In this document: piece by piece, positions 844 through 28,345 of the stretch
How positions within the stretch are numbered: position 1 is the stretch's first letter
How the letters are laid out: each line of letters opens with the position of its first letter
Assembly (NCBI RefSeq): GCF_003334765.1
Contig: NZ_QOWT01000036.1
Strand: one strand, 5' to 3'
DNA: 40,009 bases
Origin: Escherichia coli
GTDB lineage: Bacteria > Pseudomonadota > Gammaproteobacteria > Enterobacterales > Enterobacteriaceae
Notes under the pieces: model-generated
Told to the model about the DNA's origin: nothing
The model's input: only the letters and a program-made list of their open reading frames with translations
Databases searched by the model: none
Translations under genes and position numbers: made by a program

Positions 844-942
844 GCCTGATGCGCTACGCTTATCAGGCCTACATGGTCCTGCAATATATTGAATTGGCAA
901 GATTTTTGTAGGCCGGATAAGGCGTTCACGCCGCATCCGGCA
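844..942. repeat. REP/BIME: two REP units in inverted orientation between entD and fepA
   Basis: 844-873 gcctgatgcgctacgcttatcaggcctaca and 908-942 tgtaggccggataaggcgttcacgccgcatccggc are classic REP (palindromic unit) sequences, inverted relative to each other with about 35 bp between them. Confidence 0.7.
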
Positions 943-24312: not shown

Positions 24313-25473
24313 ATGACAAATAACCCTCTGATTCCACAAAGCAAACTTCCACAACTTGGCACCACTATTTTCACCCAGATGAGCGCGCTGGCGCAGCAAC
24401 ACCAGGCGATTAACCTGTCGCAAGGCTTTCCTGATTTTGATGGTCCGCGCTATTTACAGGAGCGGCTGGCGCACCACGTTGCACAGGGGGCAAACCAATA
24501 CGCGCCCATGACCGGCGTGCAGGCCTTGCGCGAGGCGATTGCTCAGAAAACGGAACGTTTGTATGGCTATCAACCAGATGCCGATAGCGATATCACCGTA
24601 ACGGCAGGGGCGACGGAAGCGTTATACGCGGCGATTACCGCACTGGTGCGCAATGGCGATGAAGTGATTTGTTTTGATCCCAGCTATGACAGTTACGCCC
24701 CCGCCATCGCGCTTTCTGGGGGAATAGTGAAGCGTATGGCACTGCAACCACCGCATTTTCGCGTTGACTGGCAGGAATTTGCCGCATTATTAAGCGAGCG
24801 CACCAGACTGGTGATCCTCAACACTCCGCATAACCCCAGTGCAACTGTCTGGCAGCAGGCTGATTTCGCCGCTTTGTGGCAGGCGATCGCCGGGCACGAG
24901 ATTTTTGTCATTAGCGATGAAGTCTACGAGCACATCAACTTTTCACAACAGGGCCATGCCAGTGTGCTGGCGCATCCGCAGCTGCGTGAGCGGGCAGTGG
25001 CGGTTTCTTCATTTGGCAAGACCTATCATATGACCGGCTGGAAAGTGGGTTATTGTGTTGCGCCAGCGCCCATCAGCGCCGAAATTCGCAAGGTACATCA
25101 GTATCTGACCTTTTCGGTGAATACCCCGGCACAGCTGGCGCTTGCTGATATGCTACGTGCAGAACCTGAGCATTATCTTGCGTTACCGGACTTTTATCGC
25201 CAGAAGCGCGATATTCTGGTGAATGCTTTAAATGAAAGCCGGCTGGAGATTTTACCGTGTGAAGGTACATACTTTTTGCTGGTGGATTACAGCGCGGTTT
25301 CTACCCTGGATGATGTTGAGTTTTGCCAGTGGCTGACGCAGGAGCACGGCGTAGCGGCGATTCCGCTGTCGGTGTTTTGCGCCGATCCCTTCCCACATAA
25401 ACTGATTCGTCTCTGTTTTGCCAAGAAGGAATCGACGTTGCTGGCAGCAGCTGAACGCCTGCGCCAGCTTTAG
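24313..25473 (+). CDS. ybdL: PLP-dependent aminotransferase YbdL (methionine aminotransferase, 386 aa)
   Basis: Class I aminotransferase fold with the PLP-lysine region SFGKTYHMTGWK; matches YbdL. Confidence 0.9.
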   Translation: MTNNPLIPQSKLPQLGTTIFTQMSALAQQHQAINLSQGFPDFDGPRYLQERLAHHVAQGANQYAPMTGVQALREAIAQKTERLYGYQPDADSDITVTAGATEALYAAITALVRNGDEVICFDPSYDSYAPAIALSGGIVKRMALQPPHFRVDWQEFAALLSERTRLVILNTPHNPSATVWQQADFAALWQAIAGHEIFVISDEVYEHINFSQQGHASVLAHPQLRERAVAVSSFGKTYHMTGWKVGYCVAPAPISAEIRKVHQYLTFSVNTPAQLALADMLRAEPEHYLALPDFYRQKRDILVNALNESRLEILPCEGTYFLLVDYSAVSTLDDVEFCQWLTQEHGVAAIPLSVFCADPFPHKLIRLCFAKKESTLLAAAERLRQL

Positions 25474-26103
25474 CTATTTAACCGTCCAGGCGCGGGAATA
25501 TTGACGGTCGGCAAACAACTCTTGCAGGCCGTTAATTTGCTTCAGGCGCAGCACTTCGTCGCTGTCCATTCCCAGCTCTTTGCCAATTTTATTATCGTCC
25601 CATCCCAACTGGCTAAGTTCACGGACGATTTCCGACATGGCGGTGATTTGATGGCGTCCACGAGCGCGATTATGACGAATAGTCGCGGCGATGCGTTGAT
25701 TACGCGTACCTTCCAGACAGGTCACCGGCAAATAACCTTTTAAGCGTAATTTTAATGATGATGAGCCTTTACCAATTTCATGGCGGTGAAAACCATCCAC
25801 GATTTCCATGGCATTTTTATCCGTATGTGTGACCACAATGGGTTGGGTAAAACCATCTATTTCAATGGATTTTTGCAGCAGTTTTTTTTCGGGTGGTGCC
25901 ACGTTGTTTGGGTTGTAATCATTAGGCATAAGTTGGCTGTTTTTAACCCACAGAACGCAATCCACTGGCTCTTCACGAAAGGGGCTAACCTGATGGATCG
26001 CCATGCGGATTTCATTAATCGCTTTGATGCGATCATCTTCCGGCAAGCTGGCGAGAAATTGCGTTAAATCCTGCGTTAATCGTTGTTGCATAGTATCCCC
26101 CAT
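25474..26103 (-). CDS. ybdM: ParB/Srx-like nuclease-domain protein YbdM (IbrB-like), 209 aa
   Basis: Contains VDGFHRH, a DGxHR-type ParB/sulfiredoxin-fold motif. The start overlaps the ybdN 3' end by 28 nt. Exact start (M1 or M5) is uncertain. Confidence 0.85.
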   Translation of the reverse strand: MGDTMQQRLTQDLTQFLASLPEDDRIKAINEIRMAIHQVSPFREEPVDCVLWVKNSQLMPNDYNPNNVAPPEKKLLQKSIEIDGFTQPIVVTHTDKNAMEIVDGFHRHEIGKGSSSLKLRLKGYLPVTCLEGTRNQRIAATIRHNRARGRHQITAMSEIVRELSQLGWDDNKIGKELGMDSDEVLRLKQINGLQELFADRQYSRAWTVK

Positions 26104-27296
26104 TCCTGACGTTTTCCTTTTATCCGTTCGTTATAACGCTGATAGTTCTTCGATTTTGTGGGGCTAAATGATAATGCCCGACACCAGTAATCGTTATTGA
26201 GTAAAACTTTGCATATCCGCCGCCAGGAGGGGATATCTTTCGCGCCAATGTCCCCTTGCTGGGTTTGTGGAACCTCGATGCCTTTTTTCTGATACCAGTG
26301 CAAATAAATGGCGATTTTATTGCGGTAATGCTCAGCTGTTTTTTCCGGCATGCTATTGAGCAGCAATAATGCATATTCTTGCCAGTCTAAATGTTCTGGC
26401 TTGAGGATTTTCCGATGCCCATAGAAATGATTGTCATGTCCGGCGTAAATGCCGCCACTTTTTACCCCGCTGACTCGTGCGCACATAGCAGCCCAGCGAT
26501 CCGGTTCGATAACGTGATAGAGCCATAATCCTTGTCGTTGCTCCGGGCCAAAAGGTTCGCAAATTCGCATATGACGCAGAGGAACGCCTGCCTGATACAT
26601 TAGGTTATACAGTGGGTTGCAGAGACTTTGATGATTTGCATACCAGGTCCAGATATCAGCCACTTTCCAGTCGTAAATGGGGTAAATGTACCAGCTATGA
26701 CCGCCTGGTGCGGCCGTAGTCCAGGGTTTATCGTCGGCAAAACGTTGTTTATTTAAACTGGCGATGGCGACAAAACGGTTGTAGGACTCATCCGCACGGA
26801 TGCCGATCATCATCGCCGCCGGACGTTTTTGTGAAAACCATTCGGCAAACTCACGTACAAATTGTTCGAAGGTCATGCCTGGCTGGTAAAAGGAGAAAAA
26901 GTCAGGGTCGGTTATCGCATCTTGGGGAGGTTGACGTACCCATTCGACATCAGGTTCCCAGCACTGCCATTCGGGTTGGTATTGTGAAAGGGAATTTTGC
27001 GTCGTAAGCGGGAGCGCAACCCAGTAAAACTCTTCGATGACATCGGTGTACAACTCGCGCAGGGACTGAACATAGTTAATGGTGCAAGAGAATTGCGCCT
27101 CCCAGTCGATAAACAAAACGCAGATTTTTTTGCCCATTTGTCGGGCAAGTTCGGCTGTCAGATGCAGCATTAAACCAGAGTCTTTGCCGCCAGAAAATGA
27201 GACACAAACGCGGGGTAGGGTGTTGAGTGTCCAGGTAATACGCTCTCGTGCAGCTTCCAGAATATTGAGCGGAAGAGGAATTTTATAAATAGACAT
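26076..27296 (-). CDS. ybdN: PAPS-reductase-like PP-loop ATP pyrophosphatase with C-terminal extension, YbdN (IbrA-like), 406 aa
   Basis: PP-loop motif SFSGGKDSG near the N-terminus; matches YbdN. Confidence 0.9.
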   Translation of the reverse strand: MSIYKIPLPLNILEAARERITWTLNTLPRVCVSFSGGKDSGLMLHLTAELARQMGKKICVLFIDWEAQFSCTINYVQSLRELYTDVIEEFYWVALPLTTQNSLSQYQPEWQCWEPDVEWVRQPPQDAITDPDFFSFYQPGMTFEQFVREFAEWFSQKRPAAMMIGIRADESYNRFVAIASLNKQRFADDKPWTTAAPGGHSWYIYPIYDWKVADIWTWYANHQSLCNPLYNLMYQAGVPLRHMRICEPFGPEQRQGLWLYHVIEPDRWAAMCARVSGVKSGGIYAGHDNHFYGHRKILKPEHLDWQEYALLLLNSMPEKTAEHYRNKIAIYLHWYQKKGIEVPQTQQGDIGAKDIPSWRRICKVLLNNDYWCRALSFSPTKSKNYQRYNERIKGKRQEWGILCNND

Positions 27297-27442
27297 CTGA
27301 AGACGCTCTCTGAACGTTACAGGGTGATCAGTGAGATAAGTCTGTTAATTATAAAGTAAACACTGTAAAGCAGAGTGTTTTATTTTTCATTCGCGCTGTG
27401 AATAAATAGATGAAAGTTATAGTAGCTGTCTGTAGTTATATA

Positions 27443-28345
27443 TCAAAAACTCTCATTTAGACGGTCAATAAATCGGGAGAACACCAAATTATTTAAAGAA
27501 GATTTATTATAGGAAATGTAAAGCTTTATTGAAGGTAACGGATGTTCTAGTTTTATCTCTTTTAAGTTAAGAAAGTCACGGTAGAAATTATAAAGTTCAT
27601 AGGGGACTATTCCCAGTAAATCTGTAACTGCAATGCTATTAATGATTGTCAGCAAAGAGGAACCACGAAATGAGATTTTGCGATTCATAAATCTCTCGTC
27701 TATTTCCATTTGAATATCATCAACCCCTGCTGATTTAGATATTAATTGGGTGAACTCTTCTGCCATAATTTGTTCATAAGTGCTATTGTCAGTAATTCGT
27801 GGATGCCTATTACTACAAATTAGAGTATTGCGAATCGTATGCAATGGCATGCAAATGACGGAACGGCTGATCACTGGCATTTGGGTGATCACCAGATCGG
27901 CTTTGCGGTGAACCAACAGTTCTTCAGCATTCTCTGCTGACATGAGGATATCATGGCACTCAATCTCGACAGAGGAATCTTGCCGTAGGCAGCGGATCAG
28001 CATACTATTATTAGAGCAAGAAATGAGCTGAGGGCCGTAGATAATAAAGTTTTTCTTTAGTTCGGACTTATTGACTATATTAATTGTTTGTTCAAGGCCT
28101 CTGAGATTTTTCTCAAGATGGTGATGCAGATTTAACCCTGTTGTCGTCGGCGCGATACCTTTTCCTGAGCGAATGAATAAAGGGTCATTAAATTGCGCAC
28201 GTAAGCGTTGTAACGACTGGCTCACGGCTGATGGGGTGATATATAGTGATTCAGCAGCTTTGCTAATGCTTAAATGCTGGTAAATACACTCAAATATGAC
28301 AAGAAGATTTAAGTCGAACTTTTTCAAGTCGTAGAGATTGGCCAT
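27443..28345 (-). CDS. ybdO: LysR-family transcriptional regulator YbdO (300 aa)
   Basis: The N-terminal helix-turn-helix (LSISKAAESLYITPSAVSQSLQRLRAQF) is LysR-type; the coding sequence is markedly AT-rich by eye. Confidence 0.9.
   Translation of the reverse strand: MANLYDLKKFDLNLLVIFECIYQHLSISKAAESLYITPSAVSQSLQRLRAQFNDPLFIRSGKGIAPTTTGLNLHHHLEKNLRGLEQTINIVNKSELKKNFIIYGPQLISCSNNSMLIRCLRQDSSVEIECHDILMSAENAEELLVHRKADLVITQMPVISRSVICMPLHTIRNTLICSNRHPRITDNSTYEQIMAEEFTQLISKSAGVDDIQMEIDERFMNRKISFRGSSLLTIINSIAVTDLLGIVPYELYNFYRDFLNLKEIKLEHPLPSIKLYISYNKSSLNNLVFSRFIDRLNESF

Follow-up and report, generated by a model that had tools for sequence, protein, structure and literature searches.

The ybdN-ybdM locus of Escherichia coli, a chromosomal member of the IbrA/IbrB family pairing a PP-loop enzyme with a ParB/Srx-fold protein

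Several systems are known in which the gene for a PAPS-reductase-branch PP-loop enzyme adjoins one for a ParB/Srx-fold protein, among which IbrA/IbrB of E. coli ECOR-9 (PHROG 2302 and PHROG 2159) have architectures and an overlapping gene order like those of ybdNM. Sandt and colleagues reportedly found in 2002 that ibrA and ibrB jointly activate prophage eib genes. The Eib proteins are YadA-like adhesins, and the output of IbrAB, in which silent acquired genes are switched on, may resemble counter-silencing by VirB. The same kind of enzyme next to a ParB/Srx-fold protein with a DGxHR motif is found in DndC/DndB, in SspD and in BrxP of type 4 BREX, and DndC is defined by a three-cysteine 4Fe-4S site together with a cysteine dyad for sulfur relay (PMC10853773). 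The literature searched holds no mechanistic study of ybdN/ybdM, IbrA/IbrB, DUF3440 or the combination of PAPS reductase and ParB, nor any characterisation of ybdN or ybdM, in agreement with the first-pass annotation of this DNA, which had called their biochemical activity undefined. The gene pair and its family are already known; with a record going back to 2002, the locus is no discovery in itself.

In the window, by which we mean the whole stretch of 40,009 nucleotides of E. coli DNA that was analysed, the locus comprises the following features.

25474-26103, minus strand: ybdM, 209 aa, IbrB family, with an N-terminal helical hairpin, a ParB/Srx-fold nucleotide-binding domain and a C-terminal helix-turn-helix
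25780-25800, minus strand: VDGFHRH motif of YbdM (residues 102-108), counterpart of ParB box II (GERR)
26076-26103, minus strand: overlap of 28 nt, shared by the 3' end of ybdN and the 5' end of ybdM, with the annotated ATG of ybdM
26076-27296, minus strand: ybdN, 406 aa, IbrA family, with a PAPS-reductase-like PP-loop ATP pyrophosphatase domain and DUF3440
26145-26588, minus strand: DUF3440 domain of YbdN (Pfam), residues 237-384, running on to the C-terminus
26595-27209, minus strand: catalytic domain of YbdN, residues 30-234
27174-27200, minus strand: PP-loop motif SFSGGKDSG of YbdN, residues 33-41
27297-27442, minus strand: citR-ybdN intergenic region, 146 bp, 34% GC
27347-27391: imperfect inverted repeat of 18 nt in the citR-ybdN intergenic region
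27446-27419: predicted promoter-like site in or at the citR-ybdN intergenic region
27443-28345, minus strand: citR (ybdO), LysR-type repressor of ybdNM, AT-rich and H-NS-silenced

Both motifs, the gene overlap and the AT-rich LysR gene upstream on the same strand (38.5% GC against 52.9% for the whole window) are present as first described, and the earlier assignment of a PP-loop PAPS-reductase-like and a ParB/Srx-like domain was correct. With a ybdM start at Met5, as in the 205-aa Citrobacter orthologues, the overlap becomes 16 nt. YbdN matches PHROG 2302 over its full length (260 bits) and has the IbrA-type architecture, with Pfam PAPS_reduct (E 1e-13) followed by DUF3440 (E 5e-23). YbdM, named 'IbrB-like domain-containing protein' in RefSeq, gives a full-length match to PHROG 2159 (234 bits), and its gene overlaps the ibrA-type gene on the same strand in the IbrB manner; the proposed paralogy with IbrA/IbrB thus stands. 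A mobile ibrAB-type pair of E. coli shares 58% identity with YbdN and 57% with YbdM, and its overlap arrangement is alike. Unlike mobile IbrA/IbrB, ybdNM is non-mobile, occupies one chromosomal site in E. coli, Salmonella and Klebsiella, and has a dedicated LysR repressor. It is almost certain that ybdN-ybdM is a chromosomally fixed copy of the IbrA/IbrB two-gene module, vertically inherited across Enterobacteriaceae, of which mobile versions reside on phages, plasmids and genomic islands.

The pair was found in 5423 of 5426 complete E. coli genomes as a fixed core locus between ybdL and dsbG/ahpC, the gene order ahpCF / dsbG-LysR-ybdN-ybdM / ybdL is preserved in Klebsiella and Salmonella, and the dN/dS values (0.04 for ybdN and 0.09 for ybdM) indicate strong purifying selection. 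Extra, mobile copies occur in 39% of E. coli genomes; these are patchy and often decayed, either gene having been lost by frameshift or stop with no apparent consequence. The pair is also carried by 868 plasmids and by about 225 phage genomes, with tblastn giving 224 records for YbdN and 226 for YbdM and equal counts in all eight genera listed for both. A set of viral contigs came from an alignment-based scan, a scan with a single sequence having given one close locus only. Of 78 viral loci in this set, 69 carry both genes on the same strand, for the most part overlapping, and the ibrA-ibrB gap is -4 to +5 nt in most viral loci; in phages ibrA and ibrB are an obligate pair. The hosts of these phages span at least five bacterial phyla, and virulent phages with the pair include Moineauvirus, mycobacteriophages and Ficleduovirus. 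The search for natural IbrA-IbrB fusions returned only one dubious 281-aa chimera and one chimera with a UvrA fragment, both of which are probably gene-calling artefacts.

In an alignment of 85 YbdN-family sequences the PP-loop is highly conserved (93% for G36; 96-99% for S35, G37, K38, D39 and S40), residues D64, E66, S171 and D214 of the catalytic domain are invariant, and G165, R167, E170, R174, D209 and W210 are near-invariant. YbdN has all the motifs that are invariant or nearly so in the family (SGGKDS, D-x-E, G-x-R-x-x-E-S and D-W-x-x-x-D), and judged by these residues it looks like a catalytically intact PP-loop enzyme. No cysteine column is conserved among the 85 members, and the single frequent one (80%) is occupied by alanine both in YbdN and in the ibrA-type protein of E. 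coli. A fold search of the predicted model placed YbdN in the PAPS-reductase/FMN-adenylyltransferase/CysD-like fold, its top structural neighbours being enzymes that transfer adenylyl groups or bind APS/PAPS. These searches used whole models, and the matches covered the N-domain only; by sequence, neither YbdN nor YbdM has a close relative of solved structure in the PDB. YbdN differs from CysH, CysD and eukaryotic FMN adenylyltransferase by its full ATP PP-loop, by the missing CysH cysteine, by a conserved Trp/Arg-rich insert (residues 94-140) and by DUF3440, a domain that is all-helical in secondary structure and strongly basic (net charge +9 in YbdN; family median +8; pI 9.4).

YbdM has a ParB/sulfiredoxin fold followed by a small helix-turn-helix (HTH). 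Its residues D103, G104, H106 and R107 are invariant in 79 sequences, and a profile alignment to ParB/Noc sets DGFHR on GERR (box II) and NDYNPN on the box I motif PNxxQPR, NDYNPN being, with TIRHNRARGxH, one of the YbdM family's own invariant motifs. Like the ParB-CTPase-fold regulators KorB, VirB, Noc and PadC, YbdM has alignable boxes I and II within the N-terminal ParB fold and an HTH after it, but it departs from the ParB clamps in carrying DGFHR in place of the GERR arginine patch, in ending after the HTH at residue 209, with no C-terminal dimerisation domain, and in the acidic character of the HTH region (family median charge -4). Since such a charge is unusual for a DNA-binding HTH, this region may be a surface for contact with a protein instead. 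We know of no ParB clamp that needs a PP-loop enzyme as its partner, unlike YbdM. The ParB domain of YbdM is closest to ParB domains fused to DNA methyltransferases; proteins of this fold bind CTP, ATP or GTP, with a specificity that the sequence does not predict (PMC12704722). Compared with sulfiredoxin, SerK and SbnI, YbdM has an extra HTH and no serine-kinase context, and the catalytic cysteine of Srx (GGCHR) is replaced by Phe105 (DGFHR), which is Phe in at least 90% of the family. Some phage IbrB proteins bear an EctC-like cupin domain, a small-molecule enzyme fold.

When the neighbours of the pair in 80 viral loci were clustered, a small, orthologous SNF2-family translocase was found to join it in 22 of them, and this partner is also present in Listeria, Flavobacterium phage FCL-2 and Lactobacillus phage AQ113. 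The pair is located in or beside packaging modules, adjoining DNA-related genes, in three phage groups that are unrelated to one another: in Arthrobacter phage Laroye its neighbours are the terminase and a methyltransferase, in mycobacteriophage Akoma it directly precedes TerL, and in FCL-2 it lies between TerL and the portal gene. No nucleophile donor, transferase, nuclease or effector, transporter or metabolic gene is conserved beside the pair in the 80 loci. A recurrent methyltransferase partner was considered and discarded: one such gene follows IbrB in Listeria and one in Laroye, these two are mutually unrelated, and neither has a relative in other loci.

Outside phages, two E. coli plasmids have an ibrAB-type pair next to YadA-like genes, and on a Ralstonia megaplasmid such a pair directly follows a YadA-like gene, so that the adhesin association comprises three of about 11 proteobacterial mobile loci inspected, a tally and not a statistical test. 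YadA-like genes are absent from the 80 viral loci, the adhesin link being limited to proteobacterial plasmids and islands. Other mobile copies adjoin a PerC regulator, siderophore loci or fimbrial loci. A LysR gene next to the ibrAB pair of a Salmonella plasmid was rejected as a relative of CitR, its 29% identity extending over the HTH only.

The LysR reading frame upstream of ybdN scores 467 bits against the NCBIfam CitR equivalog (cut-off 400). Whether YbdO controls ybdNM, which had been put forward as a point to check, is already answered in print: CitR represses both genes, citR deletion raising ybdN by log2 5.5 and ybdM by log2 2.5, and ChIP-exo shows a peak upstream of citR-ybdNM; flagellar and cys changes, among others, also accompany the deletion (PMC9068703). 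A further report places citR (ybdO) among the genes silenced by H-NS (PMC4720273). Apart from the one imperfect intergenic repeat, no convincing palindrome or parS-like site was found. In MG1655, overexpression or deletion of YbdM has fitness effects of 1-10% only (PMC8764527).

The reading that we prefer, with a probability of roughly 35-40%, is that ybdNM encodes a DNA-directed adenylyl-transfer enzyme and a nucleotide-switch partner that change how acquired genes are expressed, IbrAB and eib being the precedent. YbdN would be an active enzyme cleaving ATP between the alpha and beta phosphates, that is, an ATP pyrophosphatase of the PAPS-reductase/CysD/FMN-adenylyltransferase branch of the PP-loop superfamily, and its basic DUF3440 domain would take it to nucleic acid, most probably double-stranded DNA. 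YbdM would be translationally coupled to YbdN, would form a complex with it and work only in its company, serving as a ParB/Srx-fold nucleotide-binding switch or co-enzyme with a small HTH; in the three-gene versions the SNF2 translocase may move the pair along DNA. The output would be an altered state of DNA or of DNA-bound proteins that switches on silent, horizontally acquired genes, and in E. coli K-12 the module itself would be held off by CitR and H-NS. The charge of DUF3440, the SNF2 partner, the position in packaging modules and the kinship of the YbdM ParB domain to methyltransferase fusions all point to nucleic acid as the target. For gene activation as the output, the placing of mobile copies near YadA-like genes gives contextual support, as do the copies near the PerC regulator and the siderophore and fimbrial loci. 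The acidic HTH region of YbdM and the small fitness effects of its overexpression or deletion weigh against the preferred reading.

Phages of Gram-positive hosts and of Bacteroidota have no such adhesins, and gene activation may therefore be secondary to a more general DNA transaction. A bolder version of the preferred reading, for which we see perhaps an outside chance, would make IbrA/IbrB, ybdNM included, an unrecognised machinery acting on DNA, in which a ParB/Srx nucleotide switch, often together with an SNF2 motor, guides a PP-loop adenylyltransferase that is free of cysteines. The enzyme would chemically mark DNA or a DNA-bound silencer, and genes of phages, plasmids and islands would thereby escape xenogeneic silencing. 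If it were true, the many viral genes of the DUF3440 clade that are listed as 'CysH auxiliary metabolic genes' would be mis-assigned.

A different possibility, which we regard as rather doubtful, is that the pair covalently modifies DNA (backbone, end or base) through an adenylylated intermediate in a cysteine-independent manner, providing an epigenetic mark or anti-restriction for mobile elements, with gene activation as a by-product. The conserved catalytic residues indicate a real enzyme, and the known DNA-acting members of its branch, DndC and, by weak partial matches, BrxP, modify DNA. Proximity to terminase and methyltransferase in Laroye, to TerL in Akoma and to TerL and portal in FCL-2 would suit such an activity, as would an SNF2 partner, which occurs in the Dpd, DISARM and BREX modification systems, and the likeness of the YbdM ParB domain to ParB-methyltransferase fusions. 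However, the literature searched reports no modified nucleoside for phages with the pair, the viral neighbourhoods offer neither a conserved nucleophile donor nor a transferase, and a chromosomal copy, being silenced as a rule, would not keep up a self mark.

It is unlikely that the two proteins form a nucleotide-signal pair, in which YbdN would make an adenylylated small molecule or an unusual nucleotide, comparable to the APS made by CysD or the FAD made by FMN adenylyltransferase, and the ParB/Srx pocket of YbdM would bind this product and switch. The closest folds to YbdN are indeed small-molecule adenylyltransferases and APS/PAPS binders, Srx, SerK and SbnI apply the fold of YbdM to small or protein substrates, and both the CTP, ATP or GTP binding of the ParB fold (PMC12704722) and the EctC-like cupin of some phage IbrB proteins are consistent with a soluble ligand. 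Against this, the basic DUF3440 and the SNF2 partner favour nucleic acid over a soluble substrate, and no transporter or metabolic gene is conserved nearby.

We give a similarly low chance to a system of defence against phages or plasmids, which might work by sensing or marking the DNA that enters. The domain pairing recalls components of Dnd, Ssp, Dpd and type 4 BREX, the copy in one lambdoid prophage is an opposite-strand moron of the nin region, a single island copy adjoins a Mokosh MkoA-like helicase, and the YbdM protein is 29-fold more abundant in cells with plasmid pUUH239.2 (PMC8764527). The co-occurrence with defence genes that the first-pass annotation had led us to look for was nevertheless not borne out: in E. 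coli the pair occupies a fixed core site that has no defence genes and lies outside defence islands, and the helicase neighbour is found for that one mobile copy only. PADLOC v2 systems and candidates are unmatched except for weak partial hits to DndC and BrxP, the latter scoring 18.5 bits in an alignment of 74 residues to a profile of 779 positions, with BREX genes absent nearby; no nuclease or effector is conserved, and carriage by virulent phages is atypical for host defence.

A Dnd/Ssp-type core for phosphorothioate modification of DNA, the system to which the pair had been likened, is largely refuted. The proposed DndB/DndC-like pairing holds for the shared superfamilies, the PP-loop, a motif common to its entire superfamily, and the DGxHR motif, and fails for family scores, cysteines and operon partners. 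YbdN scores 22.2 bits against the DndC equivalog TIGR03183 (cut-off 290.4) and 21.8 bits, in a partial match, against the DndC model of PADLOC, while YbdM matches none of the DndB models of PADLOC and NCBIfam at E<=0.01 and has only the short DGxHR motif (DGFHR) in common with DndB. DndC has Fe-S and relay cysteines and lacks DUF3440, whereas YbdN shows the reverse; because its family has no conserved cysteines, YbdN is not a DndC, a CysH or a BrxP. No DndC or SspD structure appears among the fold matches of the models, and in about 100 loci examined no dndA, dndD or dndE lies nearby, the genomic neighbours of ybdN/ybdM being citR, dsbG and ybdL; nor does any neighbourhood inspected hold a cysteine desulfurase, and no such gene recurs in the clustering of the 80 viral loci. 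The Dnd comparison is valid at the superfamily level only, and ybdNM is not a DNA-phosphorothioation system.

A CysH-type PAPS reductase, that is, a sulfur-assimilation 'auxiliary metabolic gene' as annotated in many phages and viromes, is very improbable. RefSeq and many phage records use the name phosphoadenosine phosphosulfate reductase, genes of the DUF3440 clade are included in the viral CysH tally of a viromics preprint, and the cys regulon is 4- to 7-fold up in the citR deletion strain, in which ybdNM is derepressed (PMC9068703). YbdN has the PAPS-reductase fold, yet it reaches 34.8 bits against the PAPS reductase equivalog TIGR02057 (cut-off 254.2) and 24.8 bits against TIGR00434 (cut-off 165.1), its ATP-type PP-loop is intact, the catalytic C-terminal cysteine of CysH is missing, and it is obligately coupled to a ParB-like protein, often with an SNF2 helicase. 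A toxin-antitoxin pair, a guilt-by-association guess made for the Listeria homologues lmo1309/lmo1310 that draws on the overlapping two-gene cassette on mobile elements and on a TASmania entry, is hardly credible, as growth rate falls by only about 10% when YbdM is overexpressed (PMC8764527), mobile copies lose either gene without apparent consequence and neither protein resembles a known toxin fold.

Virtually all chromosomes of E. coli, Salmonella and Klebsiella carry the strongly conserved module, and virulence and resistance plasmids have it in their hundreds, by adhesin, siderophore and fimbrial loci. Solving the chemistry of IbrA/IbrB would add a new reaction to those of PP-loop enzymes in the PAPS-reductase branch, assign a role to a large group of orphan proteins with the ParB/Srx fold and probably correct the widespread 'viral CysH' annotation. 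E. coli K-12, with a single repressor to delete, CitR, is a clean test bed for this. An apparent deep two-allele split of the E. coli locus resides in citR and not in ybdNM.

Both open reading frames, their motifs, the overlap between them and the same-strand LysR gene upstream in AT-rich DNA lie where the first-pass annotation placed them, and that observation is confirmed. The features of the locus are:

25474-26103, minus strand: ybdM, open reading frame of 209 aa, with VDGFHRH at residues 102-108
26076-27296, minus strand: ybdN, open reading frame of 406 aa, with SFSGGKDSG at residues 33-41
26076-26103, minus strand: ybdN/ybdM overlap, 28 nt
27443-28345, minus strand: citR (ybdO), LysR open reading frame, NCBIfam CitR equivalog

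The overlap is 16 nt if Met5 is the start of ybdM, as in the 205-aa Citrobacter orthologues; purine-rich stretches precede both possible starts. The LysR gene passed the CitR equivalog (467 bits, cut-off 400) and lies on the same strand 146 bp from ybdN, in DNA of 33-43% GC. The region is 100% identical to E. coli chromosomes, where its genes are annotated as ybdL, ybdM ('IbrB-like domain-containing protein'), ybdN ('phosphoadenosine phosphosulfate reductase') and citR; the pair is an already known and annotated entity.

YbdN comprises a PAPS_reduct domain (Pfam, residues 30-234, E 1e-13) followed by DUF3440 (237-384, E 5e-23), and its AlphaFold2 model, obtained with an alignment of 85 diverse relatives, is confident (pLDDT 93.8). 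Its distant structural relatives are TilS (12.9), TtuA (11.6) and the NAD and GMP synthetases, and the nearest ones either transfer AMP to oxyanions or bind APS/PAPS; the rest of the model is all-helical and gave no structural match in the fold search. YbdN carries the residues that are invariant or near-invariant in the family alignment: the PP-loop SGGKDS, D64 and E66, a Trp/Arg-rich insert (W110, W113, W119, R121), G165, R167, E170, S171 and R174, and D209, W210 and D214. The alignment holds no conserved cysteine, and the sole frequent Cys column (80%) is Ala in both YbdN and the mobile E. coli IbrA-type protein. DUF3440 is strongly basic family-wide (median net charge +8, pI 9.4). From these motifs, the absence of cysteines, the basic DUF3440 and the model, we infer that YbdN would be an active enzyme cleaving ATP at the alpha-beta position, with an appendage for binding nucleic acid, and neither a thiol-dependent reductase nor an Fe-S sulfurtransferase.

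The earlier interpretation of the pair as DndB/DndC-like, and hence a candidate modification or defence module, is partly supported: the likeness stands at the superfamily level only. The DndC equivalog has a cut-off of 290 bits, of which YbdN reached 22; the PADLOC DndC model gave 21.8 bits with partial coverage. YbdN has neither the Fe-S site formed by three cysteines nor the Cys dyad by which DndC is defined (PMC10853773), YbdM matched no DndB model at reporting thresholds, and none of dndA, dndD and dndE is a neighbour of the pair in about 100 loci inspected. Two further identities were rejected for YbdN, namely CysH (34.8 bits against 254, no catalytic cysteine, intact ATP PP-loop) and BrxP (18.5 bits, partial). 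Phage and virome annotations widely label the IbrA/DUF3440 clade CysH or PAPS reductase and class it among sulfur 'auxiliary metabolic genes'; a viromics preprint takes the DUF3440 clade as viral CysH. This label is probably wrong, because the clade has no conserved catalytic cysteine and an obligate ParB-like partner.

YbdM gave a weak Pfam ParB_N match (E 3e-4) and scored 234 bits against PHROG 2159. Its model (pLDDT 87.8) begins with a helical hairpin, continues with a ParB/Srx-fold domain and closes with an HTH, whose segment is acidic (family median charge -4). In a profile of 79 relatives, NDYNPN aligns to ParB box I and DGFHR to box II GERR, and E72, S79, P88, D103, G104, H106, R107, T141, R143, N145 and H151 are invariant in the family. 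A canonical ParB clamp was rejected, with DGFHR in place of GERR and the C-terminal dimerisation domain absent from YbdM, as was a sulfiredoxin, the catalytic Cys position being Phe105. A 2025 survey of the ParB-CTPase fold, in which nucleotide specificity is shown not to be predictable, mentions neither IbrB, YbdM nor PAPS reductase partners (PMC12704722).

The pair belongs to the IbrA/IbrB family, a kinship already proposed and now borne out by the PHROG 2159 match, the chromosome annotation and 58% identity between YbdN and the product of a mobile ibrA-type gene. Sandt and colleagues reportedly found in 2002 that overlapping ibrA and ibrB jointly switch on the eib genes of prophages, whose products are YadA-like adhesins that bind immunoglobulin. 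Searching phage records with tblastn, we found YbdN in 224 and YbdM in 226, with equal counts in all eight genera listed for both (Flavobacterium 90, Mycobacterium 60, Streptococcus 21, Arthrobacter 12, Bacillus 8, Microbacterium 5, Rhizobium 4, Lactobacillus 3). The family profile retrieved a sample of 80 IMG/VR loci, 78 of them with a callable ibrA ORF, and 69 of these 78 have a same-strand ibrB. In most of these 69 loci the two genes overlap by 1-4 nt, and both gene orders occur; ibrB-first loci encode a long IbrB (~375-413 aa) with an additional unannotated C-terminal region. Neighbour clustering of the 80 loci revealed one more recurrent gene, a SNF2-family helicase of ~400 aa (Pfam SNF2-rel_dom and Helicase_C), present in 22 and mostly directly upstream of the pair, with clear orthologues in Flavobacterium phage FCL-2, Lactobacillus phage AQ113 and a Listeria chromosome. 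Examples, in the coordinates of the retrieved comparison loci, are:

L060, 3653-4891: SNF2 helicase
L003, 4145-5356: SNF2 helicase
L004, 3833-5002: SNF2 helicase
L104, 5800-7005: SNF2 helicase

Weak profile matches of this compact helicase, a specific third partner of IbrA/IbrB, include DISARM DrmD, Zorya ZorD, DpdE and a 'pilus expression-regulating Snf2 helicase'. The position of ibrAB in phage genomes is not fixed:

Mycobacteriophage Akoma: pair immediately 5' of TerL
Arthrobacter phage Laroye: ParB-IbrA-IbrB-methyltransferase-TerS-TerL
Flavobacterium phage FCL-2: pair flanked by TerL and the portal gene
Streptococcus and Lactobacillus phages: pair 3' of the lysin
Lambdoid-type contig: pair in the early RecT...Ant...DnaB region
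E. coli prophage: pair as a moron on the opposite strand, nin region

In some phage IbrB proteins an N-terminal ectoine-synthase-like cupin (NCBIfam 118 bits, residues 1-127) is fused to ParB/Srx, as in locus L078 (9290-10186) and in Pseudoalteromonas phage XCL1123. The fusion hints at a small-molecule ligand or substrate for IbrB.

A mobile ibrAB-type pair occurs in 2094 of 5426 E. coli genomes, at 1-4 copies per genome and 71 times on plasmids, and the IbrA-type protein of this pair has matches on 868 PLSDB plasmids (Klebsiella 323, Escherichia 216, Ralstonia 129, Shigella 123, the last mainly remnants). YadA-like trimeric autotransporter genes lie within a few kb of such pairs on two E. coli plasmids, and on a Ralstonia solanacearum megaplasmid the pair is directly 3' of a same-strand YadA-like gene, a proximity that echoes the IbrAB-Eib link. 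The neighbourhood entries are:

L095, 4916-6814
L098, 14247-16550
L100, 3930-7859

The Ralstonia proteins are 37% identical to YbdN and 50% to YbdM, and a 145-aa 'transcriptional regulator' separates ibrA and ibrB there. Other inspected mobile contexts were iro or iuc siderophore loci, Saf/Afa fimbriae, a PerC regulator and one island where ibrAB adjoins an MkoA-like helicase. Directly 5' of ibrAB in the island of O26/99-3311 is an 'AAA domain' protein of 893 aa (L102, 6796-9474), with a match to the MkoA/MkoC helicase region of Mokosh (PADLOC E 1e-43); it is preceded by a POTRA-domain protein, and a PerC-family regulator comes after ibrB. Of five copies in chromosomal islands or prophages, two have one gene disrupted, by a frameshift or a stop codon:

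L091, 8978-10209: ibrA, frameshift, O26 RM10386
L092, 10155-10799: ibrB, internal stop, EC0885

These decayed mobile copies contrast with the core ybdNM, which is under strong purifying selection. The locus is present in 5423 of 5426 complete E. coli genomes, and ybdN and ybdM keep 95-98% identity between two genome classes (dN/dS 0.04 and 0.09, respectively). The 1765 genomes (~1/3) that form an apparent 80-90% identity class do so because citR alone diverges. Orthologues of 72-85% identity extend across the Enterobacteriaceae, and Klebsiella and Salmonella keep the same order (ahpCF / dsbG-LysR-ybdN-ybdM / ybdL). In Listeria monocytogenes the module has become fixed in the chromosome a second time, independently, in a five-gene cassette of small protein-SNF2-IbrA-IbrB-class I SAM methyltransferase (L104, 5448-9568) that is inserted near lexA, with pyrH and tkt on either side; the pair is counted among the core genes, as lmo1309/lmo1310 (PMC7020466).

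We propose a four-step mechanism, tentative as a whole (probability about 0.35-0.4). YbdN would be an adenylyl-transfer enzyme (ATP pyrophosphatase), because its catalytic motifs are intact and under selection and its nearest folds transfer AMP or bind APS/PAPS, as described. A nucleic acid, most probably dsDNA, would be the platform for YbdN/YbdM, given the basic DUF3440, the SNF2 translocase of three-gene forms, the phage DNA-transaction neighbourhoods and the ParB-type partner. Obligate pairing and translational coupling suggest that YbdM may be a nucleotide-binding switch or co-enzyme working solely with YbdN. The physiological output would be the switching on of otherwise silent acquired genes, in view of the effect of IbrAB on eib and of mobile copies recurring next to adhesin and other virulence loci. 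By analogy with TilS, whose layout is similar, RNA is a possible substrate of YbdN. Of the main rival readings, a protective or epigenetic DNA modification is unlikely, and synthesis of a small-molecule signal appears improbable, as does a role in defence. Literal Dnd-type chemistry, CysH function and a toxin-antitoxin pair are each highly implausible. Among modules that are enzymatically intact yet have no reaction assigned to them, ybdNM is one of the more widespread, and the question is directly testable in E. coli K-12.

Control of ybdNM by YbdO, suggested earlier, proved to be already published: CitR (YbdO) binds upstream of citR-ybdNM, and citR deletion raises ybdN by log2 5.5 and ybdM by log2 2.5 (PMC9068703). 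The same deletion raises the whole cys regulon (cysDNC, cysJI, cysAUW) 4- to 7-fold and the flagellar regulon 16- to 30-fold, with lrhA down (PMC9068703, Table 1); the flagellar rise may be a secondary lrhA/flhDC effect. YbdM, termed 'completely uncharacterized' in 2022, increased 29-fold in abundance in MG1655 with plasmid pUUH239.2, its overexpression cost ~10% growth rate and ybdM deletion gained 1-2% fitness (PMC8764527). A peptide-resistance screen recovered a ybdM knockout (PMC12147183).

The two deeply diverged citR alleles of E. coli (27443-28345 and comparison locus L087, the other allele being that of the 1765 genomes) share 80% nucleotide and 89% amino acid identity (dS ~2.0, dN/dS 0.03), and the surrounding ybdM, ybdN, ybdL and dsbG differ by 2-5% only. 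This fits the published H-NS-linked diversification of ybdO, an H-NS-silenced, quickly diversifying gene (PMC4720273). The citR-ybdN intergenic region contains an 18-nt imperfect inverted repeat (27347-27391, AATTATAAAGTAAACACT / AGTGTTTTATTTTTCATT, 9-nt spacer), a possible operator for CitR or weak terminator of citR, and a promoter-like site lies upstream of it at 27446-27419. At the other end, ybdL (plus) and ybdM (minus) converge with 0 intergenic bases, their TAG stops abutting at 25471-25476 and thus leaving no space for a terminator; the two are among the convergent 'excludons' (PMC12288877). Elsewhere in the window, three Rfam matches exceeded the gathering threshold:

865-906, minus strand: ES036 (CssrF) sRNA
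29433-29526, plus strand: STnc70 sRNA, between dsbG and ahpC
34739-34847, minus strand: rnk leader
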